DNA from: a virus
Reading direction: 5' to 3' (one strand)
Virus record (IMG/VR): IMGVR_UViG_3300008448_000009
Location: 1-64,000 of that record
Length of the DNA: 64,000 bases
The translations under genes and the position numbers were made by a program. Position 1 is the first letter of the stretch, and the number at the start of each line of letters is the position of its first letter. Below are positions 23,109-52,637 of the stretch, in pieces. The notes beneath the pieces were generated by a model. It was not told the origin of the DNA and did no database searches. It saw nothing but the letters and a program-made list of their open reading frames with translations.

Positions 23109-23156
23109 TTAATTTGGTTTATTTTTAAGAAATTTATTTCTTTTTTTTTTTTATTA

Positions 23157-23810: not shown

Positions 23811-23811
23811 A

Positions 23812-26607: not shown

Positions 26608-26611
26608 AGTT

Positions 26612-27244: not shown

Positions 27245-27313
27245 TTTGTTTTTGTTTTATTATAAATATTATATTTAAAGTTAAAAAATGGTTTAATCGA
27301 ATAATTTTTATAA

Positions 27314-30909: not shown

Positions 30910-30970
30910 ATTTTATAGTTTTATTATAAATATTCTAGGTTTTGAATATATTTATAATAAAACATAATTT

Positions 30971-31480: not shown

Positions 31481-31481
31481 T

Positions 31482-31910: not shown

Positions 31911-31913
31911 AAC

Positions 31914-32372: not shown

Positions 32373-32383
32373 AAAAATATTTT

Positions 32384-32881: not shown

Positions 32882-32885
32882 AATT

Positions 32886-33500: not shown

Positions 33501-33530
33501 AAAAAAGGGGTTTAATAACCCCTTTTTTAT
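33499..33530 (+). terminator. Intrinsic terminator
   Basis: AAAAAAGGGGTT-taat-AACCCCTTTTTT. Confidence 0.85.
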
Positions 33531-33592: not shown

Positions 33593-34819
33593 ATGAAAAA
33601 ATTAAAAGTATTGGTAGTGCCTTCAGACCGTACAGGTGTAAGCTACTTCCGTTCAACAAACCCACACATCGCATTAGAAAACAATTACCCAGATGAGTTT
33701 TCAGTAGATATTGATTATGAACCACAATTAAATAACGATGAGTGGTTAAAACAATATGACATCATTCATTACCATAGAACACTTGGTAGTTACGAGCAAA
33801 TGCCACAATTATTACAACATCTAGATAATTTAGGTATAGTTACCATTATGGATTTAGATGACCATTGGGCTCCAGGTCCACACCACCCAGCATATCACAT
33901 TATTAAATCTTCTGGGTTAGATAAAAAGATATTAGACAACATCAAGTGCGCTAGAAACGTAACAACAACAACACGTTTATTTGCAGAAGAAATAGCTAAA
34001 CACAATAAAAATGTTTTTGTTCTTCCAAACGCAGTTGAACCAACTGAAAAACAATTTACTCCAAACTTAGAAAAATCTGATAGAATTAGAATCGGATGGT
34101 TAGGTGGGTCTTCTCACTTAAAAGATTTAGAAATTCTTAATGGTGTTGTGACTAAATTAAGAGGTGATAATTTGATTGACAAAGTTCAGTTTGTTTTGTG
34201 TGGTTTTGATACAAGAGGTACACACACAGAAATTGACCAAGCAACTGGTCAGCAAAAAGTAAGACAAATTACACCTATGGAAAGTGTTTGGTTTAGATAT
34301 GAAAAAATATTTACAGACAACTATCAAATCGTTAGCCCAGAGTATAAATCTCACCTTATGAAATTTACATTGGATGAATTCCCAAATGTTGCTAATGAAC
34401 CGTATAGAAGAGTTTGGACAAAACCAATATCAACTTACGCGTCAAACTATAATTTATTTGATATTTCATTGGCACCACTAGAAGAAAACGTTTTCAACAA
34501 AGTTAAAAGTCAACTAAAGGTTATCGAAGCTGGTTTTCACCATAAAGCTATTATCGCTCAAGACTTTGGCCCATATAAATTGGATTTAAAAAATGCGATT
34601 CAATATGGTGGTGGTTTTGATGAAACAGCCAACGGTATTCTTATCGACTCTAAAAAGAACCACAAAGATTGGTATACTTCGTTGAAAAAATTAATAACAA
34701 ACCCTAATATGATTCCAATCCTTCAAGAAAATCTTTACAACACTGTTAAAGACACATATTCAATGAACAAAGTAACTGAGGATAGAAAAGAATTATATTT
34801 AAAATTAACACAAAAATAA
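33593..34819 (+). CDS. GT-B fold (GT4-like) glycosyltransferase
   Basis: IGWLGGSSH and DISLAPL...FNKVKSQLKVIEAG motifs. Confidence 0.8.
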   Translation: MKKLKVLVVPSDRTGVSYFRSTNPHIALENNYPDEFSVDIDYEPQLNNDEWLKQYDIIHYHRTLGSYEQMPQLLQHLDNLGIVTIMDLDDHWAPGPHHPAYHIIKSSGLDKKILDNIKCARNVTTTTRLFAEEIAKHNKNVFVLPNAVEPTEKQFTPNLEKSDRIRIGWLGGSSHLKDLEILNGVVTKLRGDNLIDKVQFVLCGFDTRGTHTEIDQATGQQKVRQITPMESVWFRYEKIFTDNYQIVSPEYKSHLMKFTLDEFPNVANEPYRRVWTKPISTYASNYNLFDISLAPLEENVFNKVKSQLKVIEAGFHHKAIIAQDFGPYKLDLKNAIQYGGGFDETANGILIDSKKNHKDWYTSLKKLITNPNMIPILQENLYNTVKDTYSMNKVTEDRKELYLKLTQK

Positions 34820-34820
34820 A

Positions 34821-35210
34821 ATGGGAAAGAAAAAAGATTTAAAAAAAGTATTGGTATTTTTGGCTGATTATTTAAAAGAAGAAAAAACTAAAAAAAGAAA
34901 AAAAGTTAAAGTTGAAAAAACATTGTTGGTTGAACAAAAAGAAGATGAATTAACTAAACTTAAAACACCTATAGATAACCTTAGTGTAACGGCAGAACAT
35001 ATCAAAGACCTTATGGATAGGATTGATGAAAAAAGAGTGGAAGAAGCTAAAACTAAAACTTTGTTATCCAACCAAAGAAAAGAATTTCAAGAAGAGATTA
35101 AAAAAGTAAAAGAAAACGCTATTGAAAAAATTTTAGAGTCTAAAAAAGAAGAAGAAGTTTTATTAAGTGGTGTTACTTTGTCAGTGTTAAATAATGATTT
35201 TTCAAATTAA
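34821..35210 (+). CDS. Hypothetical K/E-rich coiled-coil protein
   Basis: 129-aa ORF. Confidence 0.55.
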   Translation: MGKKKDLKKVLVFLADYLKEEKTKKRKKVKVEKTLLVEQKEDELTKLKTPIDNLSVTAEHIKDLMDRIDEKRVEEAKTKTLLSNQRKEFQEEIKKVKENAIEKILESKKEEEVLLSGVTLSVLNNDFSN

Positions 35211-35237
35211 CATAGATAAAAAAAGTATACAAAAACA

Positions 35238-35268
35238 TTGATTTTTTGTATTTTTATGCGTATATTTG
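35238..35268 (+). promoter_or_regulatory. Host-type promoter
   Basis: TTGATT-17-TATATTTG, the same architecture as 8491..8521. Confidence 0.6.
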
Positions 35269-35301
35269 TAAAAAAATAACAGATACTAATATATAAAAAC
35301 A

Positions 35302-35853
35302 ATGTCTTTAACACAAGAAAAAATCCTTGCTAACACAAAAAAATATTTTGAGACAGCAAAAAATAATGATTTCATGACTGATGAACTTATGACTTTCTTA
35401 GGTGAAAGTTTTATAAAAGCTCCAGCATCAACAATGGATTCTTTACATAACGCTTTTGAAGGTGGTCTAATTGACCATTTATTAAGAGTTGCGTTTTACG
35501 CTGTAAGATTCAATAACTCATTACCAGACGACAAAAAAGTAGACCAAAAAAGTCTTCTTAAAGTTTGTTTGCTACACCAAATCGGTAAAGCTAATCTTTA
35601 TGTTGACGGTCCAGAATGGGCAAAGAAAAACGGTAAACATTACGATTTCAACAACTTATTGGTTTCAATGAGAGTTAGTGAAAGAAGTATTTACTATGCA
35701 ACATCTAATGGAGTTACTTTCACAGAAGAAGAATTTGGCGCTATTCTAATGTCAGATAAATCAGATGACAAACAAGCAGAATACCATAATTCAACTTTGG
35801 GTGATTTGTTAAAAATGTCTAACTTATTTGCAATTAAACACGAGAAAAACTAA
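35302..35853 (+). CDS. HD-domain phosphohydrolase-like protein (HD changed to HQ)
   Basis: APAS...HNAFEGGLIDHLL...CLLHQIGK resembles YhaM-type HD proteins. Confidence 0.7.
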   Translation: MSLTQEKILANTKKYFETAKNNDFMTDELMTFLGESFIKAPASTMDSLHNAFEGGLIDHLLRVAFYAVRFNNSLPDDKKVDQKSLLKVCLLHQIGKANLYVDGPEWAKKNGKHYDFNNLLVSMRVSERSIYYATSNGVTFTEEEFGAILMSDKSDDKQAEYHNSTLGDLLKMSNLFAIKHEKN

Positions 35854-36434
35854 TGAATTACAACGTTGAAGAAATGAGAAAGAAGTTATTAGATACTTTT
35901 GATTCTAATAGCGGTTATACTATGGATGATTTTAACAAAGAGTTCAATAACCAAATGCCTTTAAGTATTGCTGAACAATTCAAATTCAAGGTTAATTTCA
36001 AAAATGAATCAACAAACCCAGACCCAGAGTATGCAACTGCTGGGTCTTCTGGTTTTGATTTAAGAGCTAATCTAGTAGACGGTCCTATGAAACTATACAC
36101 TGGTGAAAGAGCTATAGTGCCAACTGGTTTATTTTTTGAATTACCAGAAAACTTTGAGATTCAAGTTAGACCTAGAAGTGGTTTGGCTGCTAAGAATGGT
36201 GTTACGGTTTTGAATACACCTGGAACGGTTGATGCTGATTATCGCGGTGAAATTAAAGTTATCTTAATTAATTTAGGTGAAAAACCATTTGAAATATTTC
36301 ATGGTGATAGAATAGCCCAAGCAGTTGTTGCTAGTGTAACAGCTAAAAACATTATTAACTTAAATAGAGTTACTGAAATATCAGAAAACACTGAACGTGG
36401 TTCTGGTGGGTTTGGTAGCACAGGAATAAACTAA
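35853..36434 (+). CDS. dut: Trimeric dUTPase
   Basis: All five motifs: SGFDL, RPRSG, GTVDADYRGE, GDRIAQ and RGSGGFGSTG. Confidence 0.97.
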   Translation: MNYNVEEMRKKLLDTFDSNSGYTMDDFNKEFNNQMPLSIAEQFKFKVNFKNESTNPDPEYATAGSSGFDLRANLVDGPMKLYTGERAIVPTGLFFELPENFEIQVRPRSGLAAKNGVTVLNTPGTVDADYRGEIKVILINLGEKPFEIFHGDRIAQAVVASVTAKNIINLNRVTEISENTERGSGGFGSTGIN

Positions 36435-36438
36435 AACA

Positions 36439-38085: not shown

Positions 38086-39032
38086 TGAGTGTGATAGAAT
38101 GGTTTAAAAGGAAAGTTGCTGTAGTGTCATTAGCTTTAAGCAACGTTGAAAAAGGCGCGTTGACGCAGACTGGTGAAGGTTTATCTAGTGATGTAACACA
38201 TAGTCAAAGACTTAGTCAAGGTCAAGTTGCTGATTCATTGATAAATGGTGAAGTAACTCAAGAAGTGCTTAATCTTAAATGGAGGACATATAAGGTTTTG
38301 AAAGCCACTGAAGGTCTTACAGCTGAAATAGTTGGTTATGATAAGGATGGTATGCCTATAGTTAAAACTCAAAAAAGAAGCAAGAAAAAAGGTCTTAAAA
38401 AAGTAAACTTAGATACTATCGATAACTATGTGTTAGAGATGGTTGTCGACAATAGTGAGATAGTATTATCTGGAAGTCAAGCTATGGATAACGAACATAT
38501 TAGTTTATTAGATGAGGTTATGTTAAATGATGGTGAGATTGGACAAACAGCTACTCATGGTAGTATTGATTCTGACGAATATTTTATAACTAGTAAAACT
38601 GAACGACCTATAAAAATTGGTAGAGACACATTACCAAATTTTTACATAGAAAATTTTGCCAAGAAATTAAACGTAAGAAAAATTAATAAAAACAAAAGAT
38701 TATTAGAATTCTACGTTAGCAAATATGTTAACGAAGACAATAGAACTAGTAGATTATTTATTAGCGCTATTAAAAAAGTTATGAGCGGTAACACACAAAA
38801 ACAAAGTTTTATAGAACTTAAAGATGTGGAATTTGTTACTTACAAAAGTTTAGGTGTTGAAGATTATTTGGAGTTTAAATACGATATAGAATCTTTTGAT
38901 AAAATAATTGAATTTAACGGATTCTATGTGATAAAATTTGTTGCCAAAGTCACTACTAACGGTAAATACCTTTTTGAAGAACATAGAGTAGATGAGTTAG
39001 ATAAAAAATACGAACAAAAAGCTAAAAAATAA
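38085..39032 (+). CDS. Hypothetical protein
   Basis: 315-aa ORF coupled by TAATG overlaps. Confidence 0.65.
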   Translation: MSVIEWFKRKVAVVSLALSNVEKGALTQTGEGLSSDVTHSQRLSQGQVADSLINGEVTQEVLNLKWRTYKVLKATEGLTAEIVGYDKDGMPIVKTQKRSKKKGLKKVNLDTIDNYVLEMVVDNSEIVLSGSQAMDNEHISLLDEVMLNDGEIGQTATHGSIDSDEYFITSKTERPIKIGRDTLPNFYIENFAKKLNVRKINKNKRLLEFYVSKYVNEDNRTSRLFISAIKKVMSGNTQKQSFIELKDVEFVTYKSLGVEDYLEFKYDIESFDKIIEFNGFYVIKFVAKVTTNGKYLFEEHRVDELDKKYEQKAKK

Positions 39033-39655
39033 TGGTTGATTTAAAAAAATATTTTGATAGAATTTATGTAATCAACCTAGACAGACGACCAGATAGGTTA
39101 GAGAAATTTAATCTAGAGCTTGATAAGTTCGGAATTACCGATGTTGAAAAATTTTCAGCGATTGACGGAACAACTATTTCACCAAATAATAACACTTTGT
39201 TAGCTGGTGAAATAGGTGTTTTAATGTCACATCTAGAAATAATTAAAAAATGTCATTCTGAAGGGGTTAAAAATGTTTTAATATTAGAAGATGATGTGTT
39301 TTTCACTGATGAAATAAAAAAGTTAGATGAATATATGTTAGAAGTCCCTAAAGATTGGGATTTTATTTATTTTGGTGGAAACCATGTTTACGGGGCTGCA
39401 CCAACGAAAATATCAGATAAAGTGCTTAAATTAAATTTTACAGTAGCTTTACAATGTGTTGCGATAAACAATACATTATTTGAAACCATCATGGCTATTT
39501 TACCTAAAATGGGTAAACAAGTTGATGGTTATTACGCACAATTACATAACGTCTACAATGCTTATGGGTTTTATCCTAATATGGCAAAACAAGTTGCTGG
39601 TTTTAGTGACATCCAAAATAGGAACGTAGACTATTCAGGGTTTTTTAAAGATTAA
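39032..39655 (+). CDS. GT25-family glycosyltransferase
   Basis: YVINLDRRPDR, FSAIDG, GEIGVLMSH and LILEDD motifs. Confidence 0.88.
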   Translation: MVDLKKYFDRIYVINLDRRPDRLEKFNLELDKFGITDVEKFSAIDGTTISPNNNTLLAGEIGVLMSHLEIIKKCHSEGVKNVLILEDDVFFTDEIKKLDEYMLEVPKDWDFIYFGGNHVYGAAPTKISDKVLKLNFTVALQCVAINNTLFETIMAILPKMGKQVDGYYAQLHNVYNAYGFYPNMAKQVAGFSDIQNRNVDYSGFFKD

Positions 39656-40479
39656 TGGAAAAATATAAAAATCAATTAATTATTTTCTCTAAAAATAGGG
39701 CGTGTCAATTGAATCTTTTGTTAGATTCGTTAGTATTAAATGCTCCGCTATTATTTGACAAAATACATGTTTTATATAAATCTGAAAACGATTATATTTT
39801 GGGGTACGAAAAACTTAAAGAAAAATACAGTGGTATCAATTTCCATTCTGAAACTAATTTTAGAAAAGATTTATTTAAACTAATAGATGACGAAATTGAA
39901 GTAACAACATTTATGGTTGATGATGCGGTAGTGTTTAAACAAATAATGGCTAGGAAAATAGAAATAATCAAACCAGTTGTTGAAAACAATTTAATATTTT
40001 CATTAAGACTAGGTAAAAATTGTGTTTATTCGCATCCAGCTAATTTAAACTATACTCTTGGTGAACATGAAGTAGATGGTGAATATATTAGCTTCGACTA
40101 TACCAAACAACAAATAGGTGATTTCAAATACCCACTATCAACAGATGGCCATATTTTTAACACTAAATTAATAAAAGATTTACTTATAGATATTAATTTT
40201 CACAACCCAAATACCTTAGAAGCCAATTTACAAAAATTTGTTTTTATGAATTCTATACCTACTAAAATGAAATGTTTTACTGAATCAAAATTAGTTAGCA
40301 TACCAGTTAATTTGGTTAATGAAACCTTTAATAATAGACATGGATTGGAATTTGGTATATCAGAAAAAGAACTTAACGATAAATATCTTAACGGTGAGGT
40401 TATAGATTTAAAATCCATGGATTTTAATGGTATAAATGGACCACATAAAGAAATAATATATAAATTTAAAACGAATTAA
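39655..40479 (+). CDS. GT-A-like glycosyltransferase (putative)
   Basis: IIFSKNRACQL...FMVDD, plus cluster context. Confidence 0.6.
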   Translation: MEKYKNQLIIFSKNRACQLNLLLDSLVLNAPLLFDKIHVLYKSENDYILGYEKLKEKYSGINFHSETNFRKDLFKLIDDEIEVTTFMVDDAVVFKQIMARKIEIIKPVVENNLIFSLRLGKNCVYSHPANLNYTLGEHEVDGEYISFDYTKQQIGDFKYPLSTDGHIFNTKLIKDLLIDINFHNPNTLEANLQKFVFMNSIPTKMKCFTESKLVSIPVNLVNETFNNRHGLEFGISEKELNDKYLNGEVIDLKSMDFNGINGPHKEIIYKFKTN

Positions 40480-40480
40480 A

Positions 40481-41092
40481 ATGCTATTAAACTTAGACAA
40501 TTTAAAAGAAAAATATGACCTTAAAATTAAAGGTATATTACACATTGGTGCTCACGTTGGTCAAGAATATAACACATACCAAAGATTAGGTATTGATAAC
40601 GTAATGTTCTTCGAACCAGTACCATCAACATTTCAAAGACTAAAAGAAAATGTTGGTGATAACGCAATTTTACATAACACTGCTTTAGGTAATATTGAAG
40701 GTGAAGTTGAAATGTTTACTGAAACTATAAACGAAGGACAATCTAGTTCTGTTTTACAACCAGACTATCATTTGGTGCAACACCCAAATATTCAATTTGA
40801 TGGGAAAGAAACTGTTAAAATAACAAAGTTAGATAATTTTATTGAAGATAAAGATAAATATAATTTCATCAACGTAGACGTTCAAGGTTATGAACTAGAA
40901 GTTTTTAAAGGTGGTTCTGAATTTTTAAATTCCATTGATTATATCATGACTGAAGTAAACCGAGCTGAACTTTATAAAGGTTGTGCTAGAATTGAAGAAT
41001 TAGATACTTTCCTAAGTGAATATGGTTTTGAAAGAGTTGAAACAACTTGGGATGGTGGAACATGGGGAGACGCTTTTTATGTTAAAGGATAA
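40481..41092 (+). CDS. FkbM-family methyltransferase
   Basis: HIGAHVG, FFEP, NVDVQGYELEV and WGDAFY motifs. Confidence 0.9.
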   Translation: MLLNLDNLKEKYDLKIKGILHIGAHVGQEYNTYQRLGIDNVMFFEPVPSTFQRLKENVGDNAILHNTALGNIEGEVEMFTETINEGQSSSVLQPDYHLVQHPNIQFDGKETVKITKLDNFIEDKDKYNFINVDVQGYELEVFKGGSEFLNSIDYIMTEVNRAELYKGCARIEELDTFLSEYGFERVETTWDGGTWGDAFYVKG

Positions 41093-41888
41093 ACTATACA
41101 TACATGATAGAATGTTTTCTCACGCAAAATCTAGTAGTGGGCACAATGAACCAGAGCTATTTGAATGGGTTAGAAAATATGATGAAGACCATTTAATTTT
41201 AACTGACTTTTCATTAACGGAAGTTGATAAGTTTATCAACCCTAAAAAATATGGTTGGCTATTAGAATCACCAGAAATAACACCTAATGCTTATCAATAC
41301 ATAGCTAAAAATTACGATAAATTTGATATGGTTTTTACGTTTAGTAAAGAGCTACTCAAAATATCTGATAAATTTGTTTTAATACCCTACGGTGGTTGTT
41401 GGATTGATGTGGAAGATAGAATGATTTATGAAAAATCAAAAAATGTTTCTATTATCCTATCAGCAAAACAAACAACAGTAGGTCATAGACTTAGACATAC
41501 AGTTTTAAAAACTTTTCCAGCGTTAGACAATTTCGGGTTTAACAATCCAATTGAAAAAAAGATTACAGCGTTAAAAGATTATCGTTTTTCAATTGTAATT
41601 GAAAACTGTCAAAAAGATTATTATTTTAGTGAAAAATTGATTGATTGTTTTATGACTGGTACAATACCAATTTATTGGGGCTGCCCATCTATTGGTGAAT
41701 TTTTCGACACCAATGGAATGTTGATAATAAATAACGTTGATGATTTAGAAGCAGCGATAAAATCTTTAAGTGAAAAACTCTACGCTTCGAAATTGGAATC
41801 AATCAAACATAATTTTGAAGTGGCTAAAAAATATTTGGTCGCTGATAACATCATATACAATAAATTAAAAGAATATGAAGGTAGTTAG
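41079..41888 (+). CDS. GT10-family alpha-1,3/4-fucosyltransferase-like protein
   Basis: Signature YRFSIVIEN...YYFSEKLIDCF..GTIPIYWG. Start probably at ATG 41079. Confidence 0.85.
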   Translation: MLKDKLYIHDRMFSHAKSSSGHNEPELFEWVRKYDEDHLILTDFSLTEVDKFINPKKYGWLLESPEITPNAYQYIAKNYDKFDMVFTFSKELLKISDKFVLIPYGGCWIDVEDRMIYEKSKNVSIILSAKQTTVGHRLRHTVLKTFPALDNFGFNNPIEKKITALKDYRFSIVIENCQKDYYFSEKLIDCFMTGTIPIYWGCPSIGEFFDTNGMLIINNVDDLEAAIKSLSEKLYASKLESIKHNFEVAKKYLVADNIIYNKLKEYEGS

Positions 41889-42558
41889 TTTCTCACTATA
41901 CGGTGATAACGTGATTTACACTGTTGGTTGTATAAAAAACGCCATATTAATGGAGGATTACTTCAAAGATTGGGAAATGTGGGTTTACCATAATGATTCG
42001 GTACCTAGCTTTATTCTGGAAGAGCTTCAAACTCTAGGTGTGCATCTTATCAATACACATGAAAATAATGGGTTTTTGGGTTCCCTTTGGCGTTTCAGAC
42101 CAATCATGGACCAACAGGTTGAATACTTTATATCTAGGGATTGTGATTCAAGGATTAGTTTGCGTGATGAAACCGCTGTCAACGAATGGATTGAGTCTGG
42201 AAAAAGTTTCCACATTATAAGAGAACACCCTATTGGTCACGGTTGGGTTATCAACGCTGGAATGTGGGGTGCCAAGGGTGGTTCAATCCAAAACTTTTCA
42301 GAGTTAATGAGTGCTTACTTGCAAAAAAATAATAGGACTGGTGATAAGACCGTAGACCAATGTTTTTTGAGAGATATTATTCACCCGATTGTGGTTAATG
42401 ATTTGTTTCTACATGATGAGTTCTTCAACTACGAAGGTATTGGGACTCACATAAAAAGAGATAGAAACTTAGACAATTTTGCTTTTATTGGTGAGTCAGT
42501 AGATGAAAATAATTTTCCTAGGGGTGACCAAAGGACTAGTATAAGACAAAGATATTAA
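41875..42558 (+). CDS. Putative glycosyltransferase-like protein
   Basis: SFSLYG, WRF, SRDCDSR (DxD), AGMWG and DQ.FL motifs. Confidence 0.55.
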   Translation: MKVVSFSLYGDNVIYTVGCIKNAILMEDYFKDWEMWVYHNDSVPSFILEELQTLGVHLINTHENNGFLGSLWRFRPIMDQQVEYFISRDCDSRISLRDETAVNEWIESGKSFHIIREHPIGHGWVINAGMWGAKGGSIQNFSELMSAYLQKNNRTGDKTVDQCFLRDIIHPIVVNDLFLHDEFFNYEGIGTHIKRDRNLDNFAFIGESVDENNFPRGDQRTSIRQRY

Positions 42559-42559
42559 A

Positions 42560-44043: not shown

Positions 44044-44828
44044 AAAAAGTATTAGTGATTATTTCGGATGGAAATTATTTAGAGCATGCAAAATCATTGT
44101 TTTCAAATGTTAAAAATGAAGGCAAATGGGATGGGGACTTATGTCTTATTGCCAATAACTTGGATGGTCATGATTTGTCTGATTTTGAGAAATTCGGGGT
44201 TAAAATCTTACACAGAAATTGCGACAATAAATTCAGAATAAACCTACATGTTTTTGACATATATTTTAAACAATGGGATTATGTTATTTACATGGATTGT
44301 GATTTTATGGTATTTAAAGATTTGAATAAATTCTTAGACAAATACGATACTAATTTTATCGGGTTACTGGCAGATATTGAACCATTTAAAATAAAAGACT
44401 ACCTATGTCAAGGTTGGGATTTGGGTAACAAAAATTCTTCACTATCAAAACTAGAGGGGAAATATGATTTAAACAAAAACGGTTTTAACGCTGGTTTCTT
44501 CTCATTCAACACAAAAGTAATCAATAAAGATACGTTAAATGAGTTGTTTGGTTTAGAAAATGAAATTAAAGACGTAAACAATCATATCATACCAACTGGT
44601 AGTGACCAACCAATCTTTAATTTGTACTTTATTGATAAAGTTGAGTATATACAAAATAACGACATTTGTTATTGTGGTTTGATAAGCGAAGAAACAACTG
44701 CTGCTCATTTTTGTGGTGGTGATAGACCTTGGACCCGTAACGAATTTTCAAATTCGTTTAATATGACATTTAAAGAAAAATATGACGAAAATTTAAACAG
44801 GTTTTATGAGTGTATCAATAAATTATAG
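44040..44828 (+). CDS. GT8-like glycosyltransferase
   Basis: VIYMDCD, FNAGF, SDQPIFN and HFCGGDRPW motifs. Confidence 0.8.
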   Translation: MKKVLVIISDGNYLEHAKSLFSNVKNEGKWDGDLCLIANNLDGHDLSDFEKFGVKILHRNCDNKFRINLHVFDIYFKQWDYVIYMDCDFMVFKDLNKFLDKYDTNFIGLLADIEPFKIKDYLCQGWDLGNKNSSLSKLEGKYDLNKNGFNAGFFSFNTKVINKDTLNELFGLENEIKDVNNHIIPTGSDQPIFNLYFIDKVEYIQNNDICYCGLISEETTAAHFCGGDRPWTRNEFSNSFNMTFKEKYDENLNRFYECINKL

Positions 44829-45567
44829 TGGTAGGTTAGGTAACAATTTGTTCCAATATGTCGCTGCGTATATCTTTGCTAAAAAATTTAATCTAAAAAT
44901 ATCGTCTGGTGTTGTGGAGAATAAATTTGATTTGCCTTTGTTGACTGGTGAAGAAACTGGTGGGCCAATCATCGATGTTGATGATTCTAATTTCATGAGG
45001 TTATTGGAATCGGAAAGTATCACACCAGCTCATTATCGTTTTGTTGGTTATTATCAAAATAGAGATTTTATCTTAAAAAATAGAGATGAAATAAAGTCGC
45101 TATTTAATTTAACCTTTACCGATACACCAAATGACCAAGTATTTGTCGCGTACAGAATTGGTGATATAAACGGTGAAAGACAAATGTTACCAATTGAATA
45201 CTACAGGGAAGCCTTACAAAACATTCGTTGTCACGATGGTTATATCACTTCAGACACACCAGACCACCCTAATGTTTTGCAATTAGCAAACGAATTTAAT
45301 TTAAAGATTTATAATGAATCACCTTTAGAAACTATTGATTTTGCCAAAAATTTTAATAACTTGGTGTTGAGTGAAGGAAGTTTTAGTTGGTGGATTGGTT
45401 TTCTTAGTAATGCTGAAAACATTTATTACAACGAAAGACCTAGATTCTGGCATGGAGATATATTTGTTCTACCAGAATGGAAGGGGTTAAAATATGACTG
45501 GTGTCCAACATGTGTCGGACATAATAATATGTTAAAATGTAACAAAATAATAAATAATAATATATGA
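44806..45567 (+). CDS. GT11-family alpha-1,2-fucosyltransferase-like protein
   Basis: GRLGNNLFQY, GYYQ, YRIGD and SFSWW motifs. Confidence 0.82.
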   Translation: MSVSINYSGRLGNNLFQYVAAYIFAKKFNLKISSGVVENKFDLPLLTGEETGGPIIDVDDSNFMRLLESESITPAHYRFVGYYQNRDFILKNRDEIKSLFNLTFTDTPNDQVFVAYRIGDINGERQMLPIEYYREALQNIRCHDGYITSDTPDHPNVLQLANEFNLKIYNESPLETIDFAKNFNNLVLSEGSFSWWIGFLSNAENIYYNERPRFWHGDIFVLPEWKGLKYDWCPTCVGHNNMLKCNKIINNNI

Positions 45568-46193
45568 AAATAGCTTTTGATATTGGTGCAAATATAGGTC
45601 AAACTGTTGACGAACTATTACCTAATTATGATAAAATAATTTGTTTTGAACCAAACCCAAGTCTTGTAACCGTTATTAAAAATAAATTTTTTAATAATGA
45701 TAAAGTTACTATTGAAGAATTAGGATTATCGGATAAAACAGAAACTAAAAAATTTAATATTTCAAACTCACATGTTGTGTCAACATTTTCTGAGGATTGG
45801 ATAAATAACTCCAGATTCACCAATGTTTATAATTGGGATACATCAATAGATGTTAAAACAACAACATTAGATGAAGTTATCGATAAATACGGTATCCCAT
45901 ATTTTATAAAAATAGATGTTGAAGGTTATGAATATGAAGTATTAAAAGGGTTGACAAAACTATTAGACAACACTTATTTTGCTTTTGAATGGGCTGAAGA
46001 ACAATATGAAATAGTGAATAAAACTGTTAAATATTTAAAAGAGTTAGGTTACAACAATTTCTCATACACATATCAAGATAGTCTATTAAATTTAGAAAAT
46101 ATTAATTGGTGTAATTGGGAAGATTTAACCATACATAATGACATAAACAAAGACCGAAAAGAAAAGTGGGGTATGATTTACTTTAAAAAATAA
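45564..46193 (+). CDS. FkbM-family methyltransferase
   Basis: FDIGANIG, CFEPNP and IKIDVEGYE motifs. Confidence 0.92.
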   Translation: MKIAFDIGANIGQTVDELLPNYDKIICFEPNPSLVTVIKNKFFNNDKVTIEELGLSDKTETKKFNISNSHVVSTFSEDWINNSRFTNVYNWDTSIDVKTTTLDEVIDKYGIPYFIKIDVEGYEYEVLKGLTKLLDNTYFAFEWAEEQYEIVNKTVKYLKELGYNNFSYTYQDSLLNLENINWCNWEDLTIHNDINKDRKEKWGMIYFKK

Positions 46194-46196
46194 AAT

Positions 46197-46832
46197 ATGT
46201 TTAATAATTTTAATATAGAAACAAATGGCGAAATATTTTTCGTAAACAAAATCAAAGATGAAATTGATATTATTTTTGATATAGGTAGTAGAGATGATAG
46301 TTTATTTTTAAGTTTTGAAAAGGAAGTTCATTATTTTGAACCAGTACCAAATTTTTTAGAAGAATTAAAACAAAAAAATAACAAAAATAAAAAATCTTTT
46401 TTTAATGCTTTTGGGTTATCTGACACCGATACGGTATTACCATATTACGTAAATTTTCAATCTTTCGTAGATAGGTCTAACTCACAAGGTAGTTCGTCAA
46501 AAATAGAATTAATAGTTAAAAAAGCTATAGATTATATAAACGATAACGGAATAAATAATATAGGTTTAATTAAAATAGACACTGAAGGTTTCGAATTAAA
46601 TGTTATGAAAGGGTTTGGTGAAAAGCTAAATATTGTTAAATACATTCAGTTTGAATACGGTGGAACATATTTAGACAAAGGGTTAAAATTAATAGACGTT
46701 GTTAACTATTTGAAAAATCATGGTTTTGATGATTTTTCATATTTAGGTGGTGAAGTTTTAACACCTATAACTGATTTTACCGACCATTACAATTACTCAA
46801 ACATAGTTTGTAAAAATAAAAAATATGAATAA
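46197..46832 (+). CDS. FkbM-family methyltransferase
   Basis: FDIG, YFEP, IKIDTEGFELNV and IQFEYGG motifs. Confidence 0.88.
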   Translation: MFNNFNIETNGEIFFVNKIKDEIDIIFDIGSRDDSLFLSFEKEVHYFEPVPNFLEELKQKNNKNKKSFFNAFGLSDTDTVLPYYVNFQSFVDRSNSQGSSSKIELIVKKAIDYINDNGINNIGLIKIDTEGFELNVMKGFGEKLNIVKYIQFEYGGTYLDKGLKLIDVVNYLKNHGFDDFSYLGGEVLTPITDFTDHYNYSNIVCKNKKYE

Positions 46833-47802
46833 AACAGCTTTAATCATTGGCGCCAACGGTCAAGATGCGTCATACATGGCAGAATTCCTTATAGAAAAAG
46901 GATACGTTGTACATGGGACTATTAGAAGAAATTCTGTTCCAGAATCACAAACAACTAGAATCGAGCATTTACGTTCACAAGATTTAATAACACTTCATTA
47001 TATGGACCTTACAGACCCTATTAGTGTTGAGTCAATCATCAATGAATTGAAACCAGATGAGATTTATCATTTAGCAGCTCAATCACATGTTCAAATTAGT
47101 TTTGAATTACCTAAATATACTTTGGATGTTAACGCTGGTGGTACACTAGCTGTATTAGAAGCGGTTAGAAAATTCTCACCTAAATCAAAAATTTATCACG
47201 CAGCGACTTCAGAAATGTTTGGGAACCAATCTGACCAAGATTATTTTCAAAGAGAAACTACTAAAATGATTCCAGTATCACCATATGGTTGTAGCAAGTT
47301 GTATGCACATAGTCTTTGCCATAACTACAGAAATTCATATAATATGTTTATTAGTTCTGGTATATTATTCAACCACGAGAGCCCTAGAAGAGGGATAAAT
47401 TTTGTTACTAACAAAGTAGTGCTTGAAGCTGTAAAGATTAAACTAGGGCTCTCTAATGAGCTTGTATTGGGTAATCTAGACGCTATGAGAGATTGGGGTC
47501 ACGCAAAAGACTATGTTGAAGGTATGTGGTTGATGCTACAACAAGAAAAACCAAATGACTATGTGTTAGCCACTGGGATTTCAAATAAAGTTAGTGATTT
47601 GGTTGATTATGTTTTTGGTAAATTAGAGTTAGGCCAAGAAAAATATGTTAAATTAGATAAAAAATTTGAACGAGCAGAAGAATTACACTATCTAAGAGGT
47701 GACGCCACTAAAGCTAAAACAGAATTGGGTTGGCAACCTAAATATACTTTCGAAAGTATGTTAGACGAAATGATAGAATATTGGTTAAATAAATTAAGTT
47801 AA
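46825..47802 (+). CDS. gmd: GDP-mannose 4,6-dehydratase
   Basis: GANGQD, LAAQSHV, TSEMFG, SPYGCSK, LFNHESPRRG and RDWGHAKDYV motifs. Confidence 0.95.
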   Translation: MNKTALIIGANGQDASYMAEFLIEKGYVVHGTIRRNSVPESQTTRIEHLRSQDLITLHYMDLTDPISVESIINELKPDEIYHLAAQSHVQISFELPKYTLDVNAGGTLAVLEAVRKFSPKSKIYHAATSEMFGNQSDQDYFQRETTKMIPVSPYGCSKLYAHSLCHNYRNSYNMFISSGILFNHESPRRGINFVTNKVVLEAVKIKLGLSNELVLGNLDAMRDWGHAKDYVEGMWLMLQQEKPNDYVLATGISNKVSDLVDYVFGKLELGQEKYVKLDKKFERAEELHYLRGDATKAKTELGWQPKYTFESMLDEMIEYWLNKLS

Positions 47803-47804
47803 TT

Positions 47805-48740
47805 ATGGGAAATTTATTAGTTACAGGTGCCAACGGTTTAGTTGGTTCACAATTTAAAGGTGATTTAATTCAAATCACTTCAAAACATGGTGATTTAAAA
47901 AACCCTAAGACTATTGATAGTCTTTTACATTTTTATGCTGATAAAGAACTTAGAAAAGAACACGCTGTGGATAGAATCATACACTGTGCTGCCAAAGTTG
48001 GTGGAGTTGGTGGAAACATGAAATATAAAGGTGAATTTTTTTACGATAACATTATGATTAACACCAACGTAATTGAATCAGCAAGACAACACGGTGTTAA
48101 AAAATTAGTAGCGTTCCTATCTACATGTGTTTTTCCAGACAACGTAGAATACCCTTTAACTGAATCTAAAATACACTTAGGGCCACCACATTTTTCAAAT
48201 GATGCATATGCCTACGCAAAACGTATGGCAGAAGTTCAAATAAGAGCTTATAGAGAACAATATGGGTTAAACTATACGTCAGTAATACCTACAAACATTT
48301 ATGGTCCTAACGACAACTTTAACATAGAAAACGGACATGTTATTCCATCATTAATACACAAATGTTATTTAGCAAGAGAAAACAACACAGATTTAACTAT
48401 TTGGGGTTCTGGAAAACCACTTAGAGAATTCATATACTCTAAAGATGTTGCCGAACTAGCGTTGTGGGTTTTAGAAAACTATGATGAACCAGAACCAATT
48501 ATTTTATCGACATCACAAGAGATATCAATTAAAGATGTTGTTGGTGTTATTGTTGATGCTATGAATTTTAAAGGTAATGTTATTTTTGATAAAACAAAAC
48601 CAGACGGACAATTTAGAAAACCTAGTGATAACTCAAAGTTAATGAGTTATTTACCAGATTTTAAGTTTACACCTTTTGATGTTGGTATAAAAGAAACGGT
48701 AGAATGGTTTGAGAAAAACTATCCTAACATAAAACAATAA
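47805..48740 (+). CDS. fcl: GDP-L-fucose synthase (epimerase/reductase)
   Basis: TGANGLVG, AAKVGG, YAYAKR, PTNIYGPNDNF, HVIPSL, WGSGKPLREF and KPDGQFRK motifs. Confidence 0.93.
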   Translation: MGNLLVTGANGLVGSQFKGDLIQITSKHGDLKNPKTIDSLLHFYADKELRKEHAVDRIIHCAAKVGGVGGNMKYKGEFFYDNIMINTNVIESARQHGVKKLVAFLSTCVFPDNVEYPLTESKIHLGPPHFSNDAYAYAKRMAEVQIRAYREQYGLNYTSVIPTNIYGPNDNFNIENGHVIPSLIHKCYLARENNTDLTIWGSGKPLREFIYSKDVAELALWVLENYDEPEPIILSTSQEISIKDVVGVIVDAMNFKGNVIFDKTKPDGQFRKPSDNSKLMSYLPDFKFTPFDVGIKETVEWFEKNYPNIKQ

Positions 48741-48761
48741 TATATTTATTAATAAAAATTT

Positions 48762-49622
48762 ATGACTAGAAAAGTTACACCAGCTCCAAAAAGTGGTACC
48801 ACAAAAACTACTAGAGCTAAAAAAGCTGTTTTACCAAAAGAATCAACGATTAACCTTAAACAAGATTTATTGTCTCAAATTAAAATAGATTTGAAACATA
48901 AAAACGAAACTCAAAAAAAGCTAACTAATTCTATTAAAAATGGCGACGTAACCGTATGTATCGGCCCAGCTGGTACTGGTAAAACTCTTCTTAGTGTCGC
49001 TGAAGCTTTATTGTTGTTAAAAACACATCCAGACAAATATCATGACATAAAATTGGTTAAGTCTATAGTCCAACTTAAAGATGAAGACCTAGGTACTTTG
49101 CCAGGTGACGAAAAAGATAAACTTAAATTCATCATGATGTCTTTCCTTGACGCTTTCTACCAATTAATCGGTGAAGAACTTACTGATAAACTTATAGAGG
49201 TTGGGTATATCAAAATGGAAGTTTTTGGTTCTGTTAGAGGTAGGTCAATCCCAAATTGTATCCTATTGTTTGATGAATTTCAAAATGTTAACGATGGAAA
49301 CGCAAAAACACTTCTTACAAGGTTTTCTGAAAACACAAAAGTTGTAATATTAGGTGACACAAACCAAGTAGACCTTAAAAAGAAAGAAGACAGCTCCTTG
49401 GGTGAATTGGTAAGAATGGTTAAATTGTTGCCAGAAGAACAAGGTGTTTCTGTGATTGAATTTAGTGAAGAAGAAATTGTTAGACATAGACTTACAAAAT
49501 TCTTTGTTAAACTTTTTGAACACCCAGAGTATAAAAAACAAAACAAACCAACTAGGGTAAATATTCCAGTTGTTTTAAAAAAGAAAACTTTTTTAGAAAA
49601 ATTTTTAGATTTATTTAGATAA
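48762..49622 (+). CDS. phoH: PhoH-family ATPase
   Basis: GPAGTGKT, LGTLPGD, RGRS, DEFQN, GDTNQVD and IVRH motifs. Confidence 0.92.
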   Translation: MTRKVTPAPKSGTTKTTRAKKAVLPKESTINLKQDLLSQIKIDLKHKNETQKKLTNSIKNGDVTVCIGPAGTGKTLLSVAEALLLLKTHPDKYHDIKLVKSIVQLKDEDLGTLPGDEKDKLKFIMMSFLDAFYQLIGEELTDKLIEVGYIKMEVFGSVRGRSIPNCILLFDEFQNVNDGNAKTLLTRFSENTKVVILGDTNQVDLKKKEDSSLGELVRMVKLLPEEQGVSVIEFSEEEIVRHRLTKFFVKLFEHPEYKKQNKPTRVNIPVVLKKKTFLEKFLDLFR

Positions 49623-49671
49623 ATTATATTTTTTGCTTTACTTATCGATTTTTAATCAGTAAATTGGTTAT

Positions 49672-50301: not shown

Positions 50302-50306
50302 AAATT

Positions 50307-50660
50307 ATGATTGATTTTGGCGGGGCAATTTATTATCTAGATATTGATAGATTTACAGAACTTATCAAAATGGATGACAAACAAGATGACAAAGTTTATG
50401 AAACTGTTATCAAAAATTTTAAAGATGAAAAAGGAAAACTTCTTACTACTGAAGAATTAACAACATGTAGAGAAAGAGACGTTTTCATCAACACTAACAA
50501 ACATGAAATGTTCAGACTAATGATAGAAATTATCTTAGATGACATTGAAGAAGCTGACGATTCGTTAGGTTCAGAAAGAGCTTTATCAAAAGCTTTATTC
50601 TCTTACAAATTAGCATTTAATACTCTACTACATTACGGAATATTAGTAGAAGTTGAATAA
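50307..50660 (+). CDS. Hypothetical protein
   Basis: 117-aa ORF. Confidence 0.6.
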   Translation: MIDFGGAIYYLDIDRFTELIKMDDKQDDKVYETVIKNFKDEKGKLLTTEELTTCRERDVFINTNKHEMFRLMIEIILDDIEEADDSLGSERALSKALFSYKLAFNTLLHYGILVEVE

Positions 50661-50682
50661 TAAAATTAAAATAAAAAAACAA

Positions 50683-51831
50683 ATGGAAGAACAAAAAAAA
50701 CAAATGGATGAACAAATCAATCAATTAAAATCTGTGATTGATAAATTAGAAACAAAAGATTTTAGTTTGTATTTTTTCACATTGGATACAAAAGGTAACC
50801 CTACTGCTGGAATAGCCAACATCTACGAACACGTTAAAGTGTTAAACGAATTAGGTTATAAAGCTGCTATCCTTCATGAAAAAAACGATTATAAACTTAG
50901 AGGTGATGAAAACGGTAACGGAGTTGCTGATTGGTTAGGTGAAGAATACGCACAATTACCACACGTTTCTATTGAAGGACAAGAATTACAAATTAGCCCA
51001 GCTGATTTTATTATCATCCCTGAGATTTTCTCAAACATCATGGACCAAGTTAAAGGTTTTCCATGTAAAAAAATCGTATTGTCACAAAGTTACGATTACT
51101 TATTAGAATTACTACCTGTTGGTAAAAGATGGGATATGGATTATGGTTTTATTGATGTGATAACAACTTCTGAAAAACAATCACAATACGTTAAATCATT
51201 ATTTCCATCTATTAGAACACACGTTGTCCCAGTATCTATCCCAACATACTTCAAAGATAGTGATAAACCTAAAAAACCTATCGTTGCTGTTCACACTAGA
51301 AATCAAGGTGATGCGGCTAAATTAGCAAAATCATTCTACCTTCAATTCCCAATTTACAAATGGGTTACATTTAAAGAATTAAGAGGATTGAGTAGAGAAA
51401 AATTTGCTGCTCAATTAAGTGAATCGTGTGTAGCTGTTTGGATTGATGACGTGTCTGGTTTTGGTACTTTCCCTTTGGAAGCAATTGAATGTAACACTCC
51501 AGTTATTGGTAAAATGCCAAATATGATTCCAGAATGGATGGAAGCTACTGATGCTGAAGGAAACCCTTACATTAACAACAACGGTGTTTGGACAAACACT
51601 ACACTTAACATTCCAGAGTTAATCGCAACTTATATGAAAGTTTGGTTAGAAGATGCTGTACCACAAGATTTATTAGACGGTATCAAAGGTACTCAAGGTA
51701 AATACACACCTGAAAAACAAAAAACAACTATGGAAAGTGTTTACGAAAATTTAGTTTATACAAGAACTAACGAACTTAAAATAACTTTAGAGAAATTAGA
51801 AGAATCTCTAGAAGAAACAACTAACGCATAA
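50683..51831 (+). CDS. GT-B fold glycosyltransferase-like protein
   Basis: DFIIIPE and SGFGTFPLEAIECNTPVIG (E-x7-E-like region). Start probably at ATG 50683. Confidence 0.7.
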   Translation: MEEQKKQMDEQINQLKSVIDKLETKDFSLYFFTLDTKGNPTAGIANIYEHVKVLNELGYKAAILHEKNDYKLRGDENGNGVADWLGEEYAQLPHVSIEGQELQISPADFIIIPEIFSNIMDQVKGFPCKKIVLSQSYDYLLELLPVGKRWDMDYGFIDVITTSEKQSQYVKSLFPSIRTHVVPVSIPTYFKDSDKPKKPIVAVHTRNQGDAAKLAKSFYLQFPIYKWVTFKELRGLSREKFAAQLSESCVAVWIDDVSGFGTFPLEAIECNTPVIGKMPNMIPEWMEATDAEGNPYINNNGVWTNTTLNIPELIATYMKVWLEDAVPQDLLDGIKGTQGKYTPEKQKTTMESVYENLVYTRTNELKITLEKLEESLEETTNA

Positions 51832-51836
51832 TACAA

Positions 51837-52637
51837 ATGAAAGAAAAAAATAATATCTCTGTCATTCTTCCTGTTCATGAATTGGACGACACAACAAAAC
51901 AATTATTTGCAAACGCAGTTAAAAGTGTTACAGACCAAACGGTTAGACCTGACACATTAATTGTTGTAACACCTAAAGGTAGTGATGTTACTAAATATGC
52001 TAAAGATTTTGACTATGGTGATTACAAAAGCTCAGTAACCATTGTTGAAAACGATGGTGAAACAGATTTTTGTTCACAAGTTAATTACGGTGTATCTCAA
52101 TGTAAAACTGAATGGTTTAGTATTTTAGAATACGATGATGAATACGCTAAGATTTGGTTTAAAAACGTTGTAGAATATAAAAACGCTCATACAAACGTTG
52201 ACTTATTCTTACCAATCATCGTGGACGTTGACGCTAAAGGTTCTTTTGCTGGTTTAACAAACGAAGCAGTTTGGGCCAACAGTTTTTCAGATGAATTAGG
52301 TATTTTAGATAACAACGCGTTGTTAACGTATCAAAATTTCAATACTGATGGAATGGTAATTAGAAAATCGACCTATGAAGATTTAGGTGGGTTTAAAAGT
52401 AATATAAAATTAACATTCGTTTATGAATTTTTATTACGTATGACATTTAAAGATGTTAGAGTTATGGTTGTACCTAAATTTGGTTACAAACACGTAAACC
52501 AAAGAGAAGGTTCTCTATTCTCTTCATACAAACAAACTATCGACCCAGTTGAAGCTAGATATTGGTTATCAGCAGCTAAAAAGGAATACTATTTTGCAAA
52601 TGATAGAAAAATAACATACGAAGTTCAAAATGGATAA
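51837..52637 (+). CDS. GT2-family glycosyltransferase
   Basis: ISVILPV...SVTDQT...WFSILEYDD...DLGGF. Confidence 0.8.
   Translation: MKEKNNISVILPVHELDDTTKQLFANAVKSVTDQTVRPDTLIVVTPKGSDVTKYAKDFDYGDYKSSVTIVENDGETDFCSQVNYGVSQCKTEWFSILEYDDEYAKIWFKNVVEYKNAHTNVDLFLPIIVDVDAKGSFAGLTNEAVWANSFSDELGILDNNALLTYQNFNTDGMVIRKSTYEDLGGFKSNIKLTFVYEFLLRMTFKDVRVMVVPKFGYKHVNQREGSLFSSYKQTIDPVEARYWLSAAKKEYYFANDRKITYEVQNG

Follow-up and report, generated by a model that had tools for sequence, protein, structure and literature searches.

Chloroviruses encode their own GDP-mannose 4,6-dehydratase (GMD) and GDP-fucose synthase. Multi-domain glycosyltransferases (GTs) encoded by the virus build their capsid glycans in the cytoplasm; the glycan core is conserved, and a methyltransferase domain is among the activities described (PMC7826918). 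Mycobacteriophages glycosylate their own capsid and tail-tube proteins with phage GTs (Freeman et al. 2023, as described in PMC12619734). Among cyanomyoviruses, S-SCSM2R is reported to carry 13 GTs (PMC12801897) and P-SSM2 24 "LPS" (lipopolysaccharide) genes (PMC1079782), and the moraphages are described as freshwater jumbo phages with predicted Bacteroidota (Flavobacteriia) hosts (Perez-Hernandez et al. 2025, PMC12619734). In bacteria, Agt enzymes, homologues of AmGGT, extend glucose chains on cytoplasmically glycosylated peptides, and AmGGT itself uses free oligosaccharides; the acceptors given in the source include no lipids (PMC12159676). Here we analyse a glycan island at 33593-52637 of a 64,000-nucleotide stretch of viral DNA (hereafter the window: positions 1 to 64,000 of IMG/VR record IMGVR_UViG_3300008448_000009), which, to judge from its genes, comes from an uncultured freshwater T4-like jumbo phage (a myovirus). 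The architecture of the island is that of a conserved core around a fast-changing cassette in a fixed slot, because some of its GTs are present throughout the clade, whereas the cassette turns over through 87 families across relatives.

All window proteins were compared by tblastn with the syntenic regions of 14 closer and 6 more distant relatives. Three GTs (open reading frames [ORFs] 33593, 50653, and 51837, named by their first position; Table 1) are conserved clade-wide, like structural genes, which argues for a conserved acceptor and for a core rather than an accessory function. ORF 33593 was found in 13 of the 14 closer and 4 of the 6 more distant relatives at 43-85% identity (17 of 20 overall), and in the three remaining relatives the contig stops short of this gene. 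Its AlphaFold2 (AF2) model (pLDDT 81) retrieves GlgM, ManT, PglA, BshA, MshA, and PimA with Foldseek, and its distant homologues are GTs of phi92-type coliphages. A profile of 13 sequences of ORF 50653 matches the solved glucosyltransferase AmGGT (8xsg; E 5e-11, 45 bits, chain residues 65-321), the only solved sequence relative of this protein; the match is too distant to indicate specificity and, of the two acceptor motif pairs (residues 15-16 and 78-79), the first lies outside the alignment. The fourth core enzyme, ORF 36439, fuses a GT2_5 domain (residues 28-209) to a GT4 domain (residues 243-402). It is conserved in the main subclade (13 of 14 closer and 3 of 6 more distant relatives) and genuinely absent from G015 and G022, which form the most distant subclade and whose capsid protein is 55% identical.

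The cassette (38085-48740) is not conserved, and only the closest relative, G006, shares most of its genes. Among the 14 relatives, gmd (at least 56% identity) occurs in 8, fcl in 5, the GT10-like gene in 5 (these homologues match GT10 too), the GT25 gene in 3, and those of GT8 and GT11 in 1 each; both gmd and fcl are absent from the complete genome G001. Bounded by the fusion GT and the PhoH gene, the slot spans 2.9 to 19.8 kb in the 12 relatives with both borders. We scanned 120 of their 130 slot ORFs with Pfam, excluding 10 that span joins of fetched stretches, and obtained a match for 85, of which 79 are glycan-related. The GTs belong to families GT2, 6, 7, 8, 9, 10, 11, 25, 32, 47, 61, and GT-D. 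FkbM methyltransferases are present in the slots of 9 of the 12 relatives, alongside TylF- and C-methyltransferases, a sulfotransferase, hexapeptide acyltransferases, DegT aminotransferases, GMD, epimerases of the short-chain dehydrogenase/reductase (SDR) type, a UDP-GlcNAc 2-epimerase, and nucleotidyltransferases. When the 144 cassette ORFs of 13 genomes were clustered at 35% identity and 60% coverage, they fell into 87 families, 58 of them confined to a single genome. The window and G006 have only 56% of their families in common (Jaccard index 0.56), though their capsid proteins, compared over the conserved part, share 94% identity. In G015 and G022, the contig covers the slot and there is no cassette.

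The ORFs of the island lie where an earlier note on this DNA had placed them, at 33593-52637. The "about 12" GT-like ORFs that it counted become nine with GT support (10 GT domains) and two leads (39655 and 42560), since neither 41875 nor 38085 is supported as a GT. Its three FkbM methyltransferases (68, 65, and 50 bits with Pfam, and above the cut-off of TIGR01444) and its gmd and fcl are borne out, as is the translational coupling of most genes, 21 of the 24 gene junctions having a gap of at most 5 nt or an overlap. The note had also set the island among morphogenesis genes. This is accurate for its position, with fibre genes at 16484-30909 and the head module from 61115 onward, both on the opposite strand, but the island's own strand also carries genes for an HD hydrolase, a dUTPase, PhoH, and a sigma-like protein. 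The check that it had proposed, conservation of the island in related phages, came out differently for the two parts: the core GTs are conserved and the cassette is not.

The GDP-L-fucose pathway is represented by a full-length GMD with its catalytic motifs and by an Fcl-like match, the latter assigned by profile score only. The GMD aligns with the solved enzyme 1n7g at 319 bits and keeps the TSE and YxxxK (YGCSK) motifs, and the score of Fcl (238 bits) is below the equivalog cut-off of NF047922 (500). The nearest cellular homologues of the GMD are just 47-62% identical; with 62% as the best cellular match, we rejected a recent host donor for gmd. Together with the GT10-like and GT11-like enzymes and the three FkbM methyltransferases, these genes predict a product that is fucosylated and O-methylated. 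The GT10-like ORF (41016) probably starts at the ATG at 41079 or at 41112. For the less clear members of the cassette (39655, 41875, and 42560), there was no Pfam match at E 0.05 and no PDB match, and the highest probability from hhalign, run against small alignments of GT families from the cassettes, was 27%. The 294 members of the family to which ORF 42560 belongs are all unannotated; D89 and D91 are invariant (24-sequence alignment), and ORF 42560 is a possible GT-A enzyme. The product of ORF 38085 is not recognisably a GT: ESM Atlas gave no usable match, a PDB profile search nothing below E 0.3, and its AF2 model (pLDDT 61) no Foldseek match at E 0.001 or better.

All enzymes of the island are predicted to be soluble. 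Across the 30 ORFs from 30971 to 53366, no 19-residue Kyte-Doolittle window reaches 1.6 (maximum 1.43), and in the cassettes of the 12 relatives only 2 of 130 ORFs have a hydrophobic segment, one each and marginal. Multi-pass membrane ORFs are absent from the island and from these 130 ORFs. In the complete 345-kb relative we found no Bac_transf (PF02397), WecA-type (PF00953), Wzx-type (PF01943), or Wzy/ligase (PF04932) protein, the controls for these priming and export families being positive in 9-13 of the 14 genomes. The absence of flippase, Wzy, ligase, and membrane protein that the earlier note had reported therefore stands. Two known types of locus were rejected in the process. A serotype-conversion system of phages (GtrABC, O-acetylases) would include membrane proteins, namely the flippase GtrA, the bactoprenol GT GtrB, and a polytopic serotype-specific GT, and neither the island nor the 130 cassette ORFs contain a multi-pass membrane ORF. 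A bacterial O-antigen- or capsule-type cluster would include an initiating phosphoglycosyl transferase together with Wzx/Wzy or an ABC transporter; the transferase and Wzx/Wzy are likewise missing (ABC permeases were not searched separately). The missing flippase and ligase genes do not discriminate between acceptors, because the host could supply such functions.

Two types of promoter divide the island. A host-type promoter (-33 TTG, -7 TAnnTTTG), also found upstream of many other genes, heads a predicted gap-free unit (35302-48740) that includes the fusion GT, the entire cassette, gmd, and fcl, and has no strong terminator. Its -7 motif recurs before the HD gene in 6 of the 11 relatives that have this gene, and before the fusion GT in G010. 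Because a promoter of this type heads the unit, the cassette is predicted to be transcribed early, by the host polymerase. The core GTs 50653 and 51837 lie in the next unit, headed by a motif that we call M1, (T)ATATTTAT(A), and so have a promoter type in common with structural genes. The distance from M1 to the start codon is mostly 12-19 nt for fibre, prohead-protease, terminase, and other genes; it is 58 nt for the scaffold-like gene at 63023. M1 sites in the island precede 30971, the PhoH gene (48762), and 53393; the site before PhoH is also present in G005, G006, G007, and G001. Of its 46 occurrences in the genome, 26 are in oriented upstream gaps, which make up 2.7% of positions (binomial 5e-29), and the bare count in the window is mildly above that of shuffled sequences (20 versus 13.6). 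M1 may serve as a middle or late promoter that belongs to the phage itself, and the sigma-like protein encoded at 52638-53366, a possible phage sigma factor, perhaps takes part in reading it.

A small conserved set of GTs with an exchangeable cassette, in a genome free of export genes, points to a conserved non-lipid acceptor. Soluble enzymes would build an oligosaccharide on it in the cytoplasm, and the acceptor would most probably be a virion protein: we favour a phage protein glycosylated in the cytoplasm as the single best candidate, and give it somewhat less than an even chance. The core enzymes (33593, 36439, 50653, and 51837) would lay down a conserved inner glycan, to which the cassette enzymes would add a strain-specific outer part, fucosylated and methyl-capped; in the window phage, the cassette would supply the GT25, GT10, GT47-like, GT8, and GT11 enzymes, three FkbM methyltransferases, and the GDP-fucose pathway. 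Candidate acceptors are the variable Ser/Thr/Gly/Ala-rich insertions of the capsid protein, or a fibre. The insertions (amino acids [aa] 121-160, 181-240, 261-280, and 301-360) are of surface type, show conservation of 0.35-0.47 against 0.8-0.98 elsewhere, and lie between highly conserved gp23-like blocks. Where Ser/Thr-rich tails were concerned, only the fibres are generally rich in Ser/Thr (23-27%). Several findings support this acceptor: ORFs 50653 and 51837 occur in all 20 relatives though the fibre genes differ between relatives, thirteen different cassettes include no matched export genes, and these two core GTs lie behind M1, the motif that also precedes fibre, scaffold-like, prohead-protease, and terminase genes. 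It is also favoured by the kinship of ORF 50653 with the Agt/AmGGT enzymes, whose described acceptors include no lipid (PMC12159676), by the lack of the known routes to glycosylated DNA, and by the precedent of chlorovirus capsid glycans, which follow a similar plan of constant core and varying decoration (PMC7826918).

Several observations weigh against a virion protein. We recognised no protein-initiating GT; GT41/NGT (PF13844) was not found, with a control positive in just 2 of 14 genomes. Cassette content does not follow the variable capsid loops once phylogeny is taken into account (partial Mantel r 0.04, p 0.36), in a test that has low power because it comprises 13 genomes. Of the 37 proteins tested, all 300 aa or longer, none is enriched in N-x-S/T sequons relative to its composition (all |z| below 1.7). 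Searches of GenBank phages with ORFs 36439, 50653, and 51837 (tblastn) gave no match, so that there is no cultured relative with the core GTs in that collection. Families GT10, 11, 25, 8, 2, and 4 are classic in the synthesis of lipooligosaccharide (LOS) and O-antigen, where the enzymes are soluble too, even when they act on lipid-linked LPS/LOS precursors. Finally, the cassette and the fusion GT are behind a host-type, predicted early promoter and not the structural-gene motif, and such a promoter fits host-takeover genes as well as early production of enzymes. The interpretation in the earlier note, a soluble cytoplasmic pathway that decorates virion proteins, thus keeps its soluble, membrane-free character, its predicted fucosylation and O-methylation, and its distance from DNA, and loses ground on the promoter of the cassette.

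That promoter is also an argument for remodelling of the host surface, which we consider possible and somewhat unlikely. Here, the phage GTs would act on host-primed lipid-linked precursors (O-antigen, capsule, or Bacteroidota O-glycan) at the inner face of the membrane, and the host flippase and ligase would export the product. The cell surface would change early in infection, which could block superinfection or the adsorption of progeny to debris. The host-type promoter immediately precedes the cassette unit and recurs in relatives; the GT families and GDP-fucose genes match those of LOS/O-antigen clusters; and a hypervariable fixed slot, with 87 families among 144 ORFs and a Jaccard index of at most 0.56 at 94% capsid identity, is the pattern of a host-interaction island. 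This rival stays alive because the host could supply export, the GT families are classic ones, and the promoter is of host type. However, a bacterial cluster for O-antigen or capsule normally encodes a flippase and polymerase of its own, or an ABC transporter, matched to the unit exported, and thirteen different cassettes and a complete genome lack export genes. The conservation of the core GTs across capsids that are 55% identical and fibres that differ is hard to fit with variable host acceptors, unless the primer is conserved, and relatives of the Agt-like core GT are described as using non-lipid acceptors (PMC12159676). Host-surface remodelling is nevertheless the standing, untested interpretation of the islands in P-SSM2 (PMC1079782) and S-SCSM2R (PMC12801897).

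The glycan could also involve another soluble acceptor and serve takeover or metabolism: it could be a methylated oligosaccharide, free or attached to a small molecule, or be placed on a protein of the host or on a phage protein outside the virion. We regard this as improbable. It would suit AmGGT, the nearest solved relative of ORF 50653, which acts on free oligosaccharides (PMC12159676), and the fold matches of ORF 33593, which include enzymes of cytoplasmic glycans and thiol glycosides (GlgM, the methylmannose-polysaccharide enzyme ManT, BshA, and MshA), as well as the presence in the slot of ORF 38085, a semi-conserved non-enzyme. But these fold matches are generic for GT4 (TM-score 0.5-0.6, 11-13% identity), and an internal metabolite would offer no obvious selective driver for fast diversification.

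Hypermodification of DNA, in which the GTs would glycosylate hydroxylated pyrimidines to evade restriction as in T4, RB69, and TET-linked systems, is unlikely from gene content, and we give it very little credence, because the thymidylate synthase (ThyA) is canonical and neither a C5 methyltransferase nor Tet/JBP was found. The location of the dUTPase and HD hydrolase between core GTs would suit a DNA target, phage DNA glycans can comprise several sugars (PMC13326640), and a viral fold search lists two proteins named DNA alpha-glucosyltransferase, at ranks 29 and 50; yet the alpha- and beta-GTs of T4 are absent from the best 50 solved-structure matches of ORF 33593. In three genomes, the complete one among them, there is just one thymidylate-synthase homologue apiece. 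That of the window genome is about 50% identical to bacterial ThyA and keeps the Cys of PPCH as well as Asp and Asn at the positions of D169 and N177, whereas 5-hydroxy-dCMP synthases carry D169N, the Asn at 177 defining substrate specificity (PMC13326640). C5 DNA methyltransferase (PF00145) was not found, with a control positive in 9 of 14 genomes, nor was Tet/JBP (PF12851), a weak point since its control was silent. The thymidylate synthase gene lies outside the window (G000, 81572-82774) and encodes 400 aa instead of the usual 264-316 or so, with additional segments between the conserved blocks and no stops.

A virion protein as acceptor would make this the first elaborate glycan coat, variable between strains, for a phage of a Gram-negative phylum, and a new axis of phage diversity that would affect adsorption, decay, and grazing in lakes. 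The full form of this proposal, a virion that wears a phage-made glycan coat with an inner core laid by the clade-wide GTs and an outer part swapped by cassette exchange, is one that we hold to be quite doubtful. Were it true, the outer glycan (fucosylated, methylated, and in some relatives sulfated) would set the interactions of the particle, for example by luring the outer-membrane systems with which Bacteroidota hosts bind and take up glycans, or by shielding it from proteases, grazers, or host surface lectins. Independently of the acceptor, the slot amounts to a natural collection of soluble GT6, 7, 8, 9, 10, 11, 25, 32, 47, 61, and GT-D enzymes, which, with its methyl-, sulfo-, and acyltransferases, could serve glycoengineering.

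The window is the first part of a linear IMG/VR record of 119,281 bp (36% complete according to CheckV), with a GC content of about 32%. It also encodes a family-B DNA polymerase and an SNF2 helicase, and genes for prohead protease, portal, and large terminase lie directly beyond its end. The capsid protein is only 38-43% identical to its nearest named relatives, from Flavobacterium phage immuto, an uncultured 484-kb phage, and Microcystis phage Mel-JY01. At least 600 capsid relatives are present in IMG/VR; the 80 retained for analysis are 55-90% identical, and among them is G001, a complete genome of 345,454 bp with terminal repeats. Megablast of the island against GenBank phages gave no near-identical DNA, and such DNA is present in freshwater metagenomes of several studies. 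The fusion GT has 2896 metagenomic homologues, the best 120 of which are at least 71% identical and lie on contigs of up to 368 kb; from these numbers, the clade is abundant. The host is probably a member of the Bacteroidota, because the host-type promoters have a consensus that we take to be that of this phylum; the gene content also fits moraphages, with their predicted Flavobacteriia hosts.

The genes around the glycan enzymes differ in their distribution. Of the two ORFs that follow PhoH, that of 209 aa (49672) is present in all 14 closer and all 6 more distant relatives, and that of 117 aa in 10 and 1. Upstream of the island, the M1 site at 30948 starts a unit of five small ORFs (30971-33500), one of which (31914-32372) encodes a Gly/Asn/Tyr-rich protein of 152 aa with few charged residues. 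A stem-loop with a T run occurs at the site equivalent to the terminator of this unit in six relatives (G006, G007, G014, G008, G016, and G002). M1 sites in the window are at 8458, 10661, 16014, 20911, 27262, 30926, 30948, 48742, 53367, 56943, and 59249, and host-type promoters at 8514, 15979, and 35261 precede the helicase, polymerase, and HD genes. In a 16-kb block at the other end of the contig (G000, 103000-119000), a host-type promoter stands before nearly every small ORF, many of the form TTTGGTAG...TAcaTTTGCA, and this block looks like an early region.

Table 1. Features of the window discussed in the text, in order of position; presence in relatives is given as closer (of 14) and more distant (of 6).
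Feature	Position	Strand	Evidence and remarks
Fibre protein with YadA-head repeats	16484-20893	minus	YadA-head repeats in both fibre proteins: 110 and 48 bits
Fibre protein with YadA-head repeats	29185-30909	minus	Repeats of trimeric-autotransporter-adhesin type; 110 and 48 bits across both fibres
Phage promoter-like motif M1, ATATTTAT	30948..30955	+	15 nt before the ATG of 30971
Intrinsic terminator	33501..33528	+	12-pair stem and T run; ends the upstream unit before the first GT gene
Core GT 1, GT4-like GT-B, 408 aa	33593..34819	+	PHROG 7162 glycosyltransferase, 1.5e-40
Lys/Glu-rich ORF, 129 aa	34821..35210	+	Present in 1/14 relatives
Host (Bacteroidota)-type promoter, -33 TTG, -7 TATATTTG	35238..35268	+	33 nt before the HD gene
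HD-domain phosphohydrolase	35302..35853	+	Conserved; unrelated to glycans
dUTPase	35853..36434	+	NF001862, 179 bits; conserved; unrelated to glycans
Core GT 2, GT2_5 + GT4 fusion, 548 aa	36439..38085	+	Glyco_tranf_2_5 116 bits; Glyco_transf_4 54.7 bits
Semi-conserved protein, 315 aa	38085..39032	+	9/14 relatives; at either cassette end in relatives
GT25-family glycosyltransferase (cassette)	39032..39655	+	57.9 bits; 3/14 relatives
GT2-like, lead only (cassette)	39655..40479	+	ESM Atlas neighbours automatically named glycosyltransferase
FkbM methyltransferase 1 (cassette)	40481..41092	+	Pfam; TIGR01444
GT10-like fucosyltransferase (cassette)	41016..41888	+	24.0 bits against a cut-off of 23.9
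ORF without family match (cassette)	41875..42558	+	Pfam, PDB, and hhalign searches
Phage-restricted family, invariant D-x-D-like pair (cassette)	42560..43288	+	No Pfam match
GT47/RXYLT1-like ORF (cassette)	43288..44043	+	RXYLT1_C 26.9 bits, just under the cut-off of 27; marginal
GT8 glycosyltransferase (cassette)	44040..44828	+	41.4 bits
GT11-like, alpha-1,2-fucosyltransferase family (cassette)	44806..45567	+	27.0 bits
FkbM methyltransferase 2 (cassette)	45564..46193	+	Pfam; TIGR01444
FkbM methyltransferase 3 (cassette)	46197..46832	+	Pfam; TIGR01444
GDP-mannose 4,6-dehydratase (GMD, cassette)	46825..47802	+	Pfam 382 bits
GDP-L-fucose synthase, Fcl-like SDR (cassette)	47805..48740	+	NF047922 238 bits, full length
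M1 motif	48742..48749	+	12 nt before PhoH; predicted start of unit 48762-53366
PhoH-like ATPase	48762..49622	+	Conserved right border of the variable slot
Two ORFs, 209 aa and 117 aa	49672..50660	+	Family search without match
Core GT 3, GT-B, Agt/AmGGT-related	50653..51831	+	14/14 and 6/6 relatives
Core GT 4, GT2-family	51837..52637	+	30.7 bits; 14/14 and 6/6 relatives
Sigma-70 region-2-like protein	52638..53366	+	Last gene of the unit; 14/14 and 6/6 relatives
gp23-type major capsid protein	61115-62989	minus	Pfam Gp23, 244 bits

Individual relatives show further features of the slot. In G002 (L117:18491-19994), a GT6 gene (164 bits) adjoins a GT11 gene (94 bits), the enzyme pair that makes blood-group A/B-like trisaccharides, and there is neither gmd nor fcl. 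The cassette of G014 (L107-L108) encodes a sulfotransferase, a sugar C-methyltransferase, three FkbM methyltransferases, and two GMD-type dehydratases, which points to a sulfated and heavily methylated product. A GIY-YIG/NUMOD3 homing endonuclease lies within the cassette of G009 (L111:915-1682) and could drive cassette exchange. One GT61 gene of G010 is on the opposite strand, and the cassette-free slot of G015 (L129:3402-4517) carries an IMP dehydrogenase/GMP reductase-like gene. Outside the clade, in Escherichia phage phi92, the distant homologues of ORF 33593 are within a row of four GT genes (gp163-166), annotated by predicted fold only. As to the fibres of the window, two with YadA heads and an Agt-like core GT occur in one phage; Actinobacillus adhesins are substrates of the NGT-Agt cytoplasmic glycosylation system. 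Three other fibre-like proteins (3244-6837, 20979-23108, and 26612-27244, minus strand) share a repeat of about 33 residues ending in TISATTYxNLP, with four copies in the 1197-aa protein.

DNA glycosylation systems of phages (glucosyl-hydroxymethylcytosine in T4, arabinosyl-5-hydroxycytosine in RB69, and TET-linked systems) resemble the island in that they use soluble GT-B or GT-A enzymes, sometimes several, near genes of nucleotide metabolism, but here the base-hydroxylating enzyme is missing and ThyA is canonical. ORF 50653 is a distant sequence relative (45 bits) of the soluble GT-B enzymes Agt and AmGGT (PMC12159676); unlike in the Actinobacillus NGT-Agt system, the NGT (GT41) partner was not found in the phage genomes, where its control was positive in just 2 of 14. 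Mycobacteriophages of this kind carry a few GTs (two in one genome described in PMC11256854) and infect Actinobacteria, whereas we find at least nine GT ORFs, together with genes for sugar nucleotides and methyl transfer, in a phage that is known from its genes and whose predicted host belongs to a Gram-negative phylum. The chlorovirus PBCV-1 is similar by analogy, with virus-encoded, soluble, multi-domain GTs in the cytoplasm, a conserved core, strain-specific decoration, and sugar methylation as described in PMC7826918; it differs in its eukaryotic host and in the proven acceptor Vp54, the evidence here being genes and the variable part a single swappable cassette.

The closest parallels are in large phages. 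Cyanomyoviruses P-SSM2, S-SCSM1, and S-SCSM2R are likewise large and T4-like, with clusters of GT10, 11, 25, and 2 and epimerases of nucleoside-diphosphate (NDP) sugars (PMC12801897, PMC1079782). By gene content alone, the island fits the cyanomyovirus type (variable, with GT2, 10, 11, and 25 and an SDR acting on NDP-sugars), and "unusually elaborate for a bacteriophage", as it had been called, was an overstatement in view of the 13 GTs (PMC12801897) and 24 "LPS" genes (PMC1079782) in these phages. Their islands are accessory (P-SSM4 has none) and their hosts are cyanobacteria, whereas here the hosts are probably Bacteroidota, three or four GTs belong to the core, and a single conserved slot houses the variable genes. 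The core genes listed for moraphages are those of the window clade (dUTPase, PhoH, sigma factor, Clp ATPase, T4-like structural genes, and four GT orthogroups; PMC12619734), a likeness drawn from the gene list. Moraphage genomes reach 307 kb against 345 kb for the complete relative here, and the main text of that report mentions no fucose, FkbM, or methyltransferases, with no variable cassette described in the passages considered here (PMC12619734). GT-rich islands in large phages have been without a demonstrated function since 2005, and the present clade is a cleaner case. GT-rich islands were thus already published for large cyanophages, and four core GT groups for moraphages; what is new here is the conserved core together with an O-antigen-like exchangeable cassette in an export-free genome.

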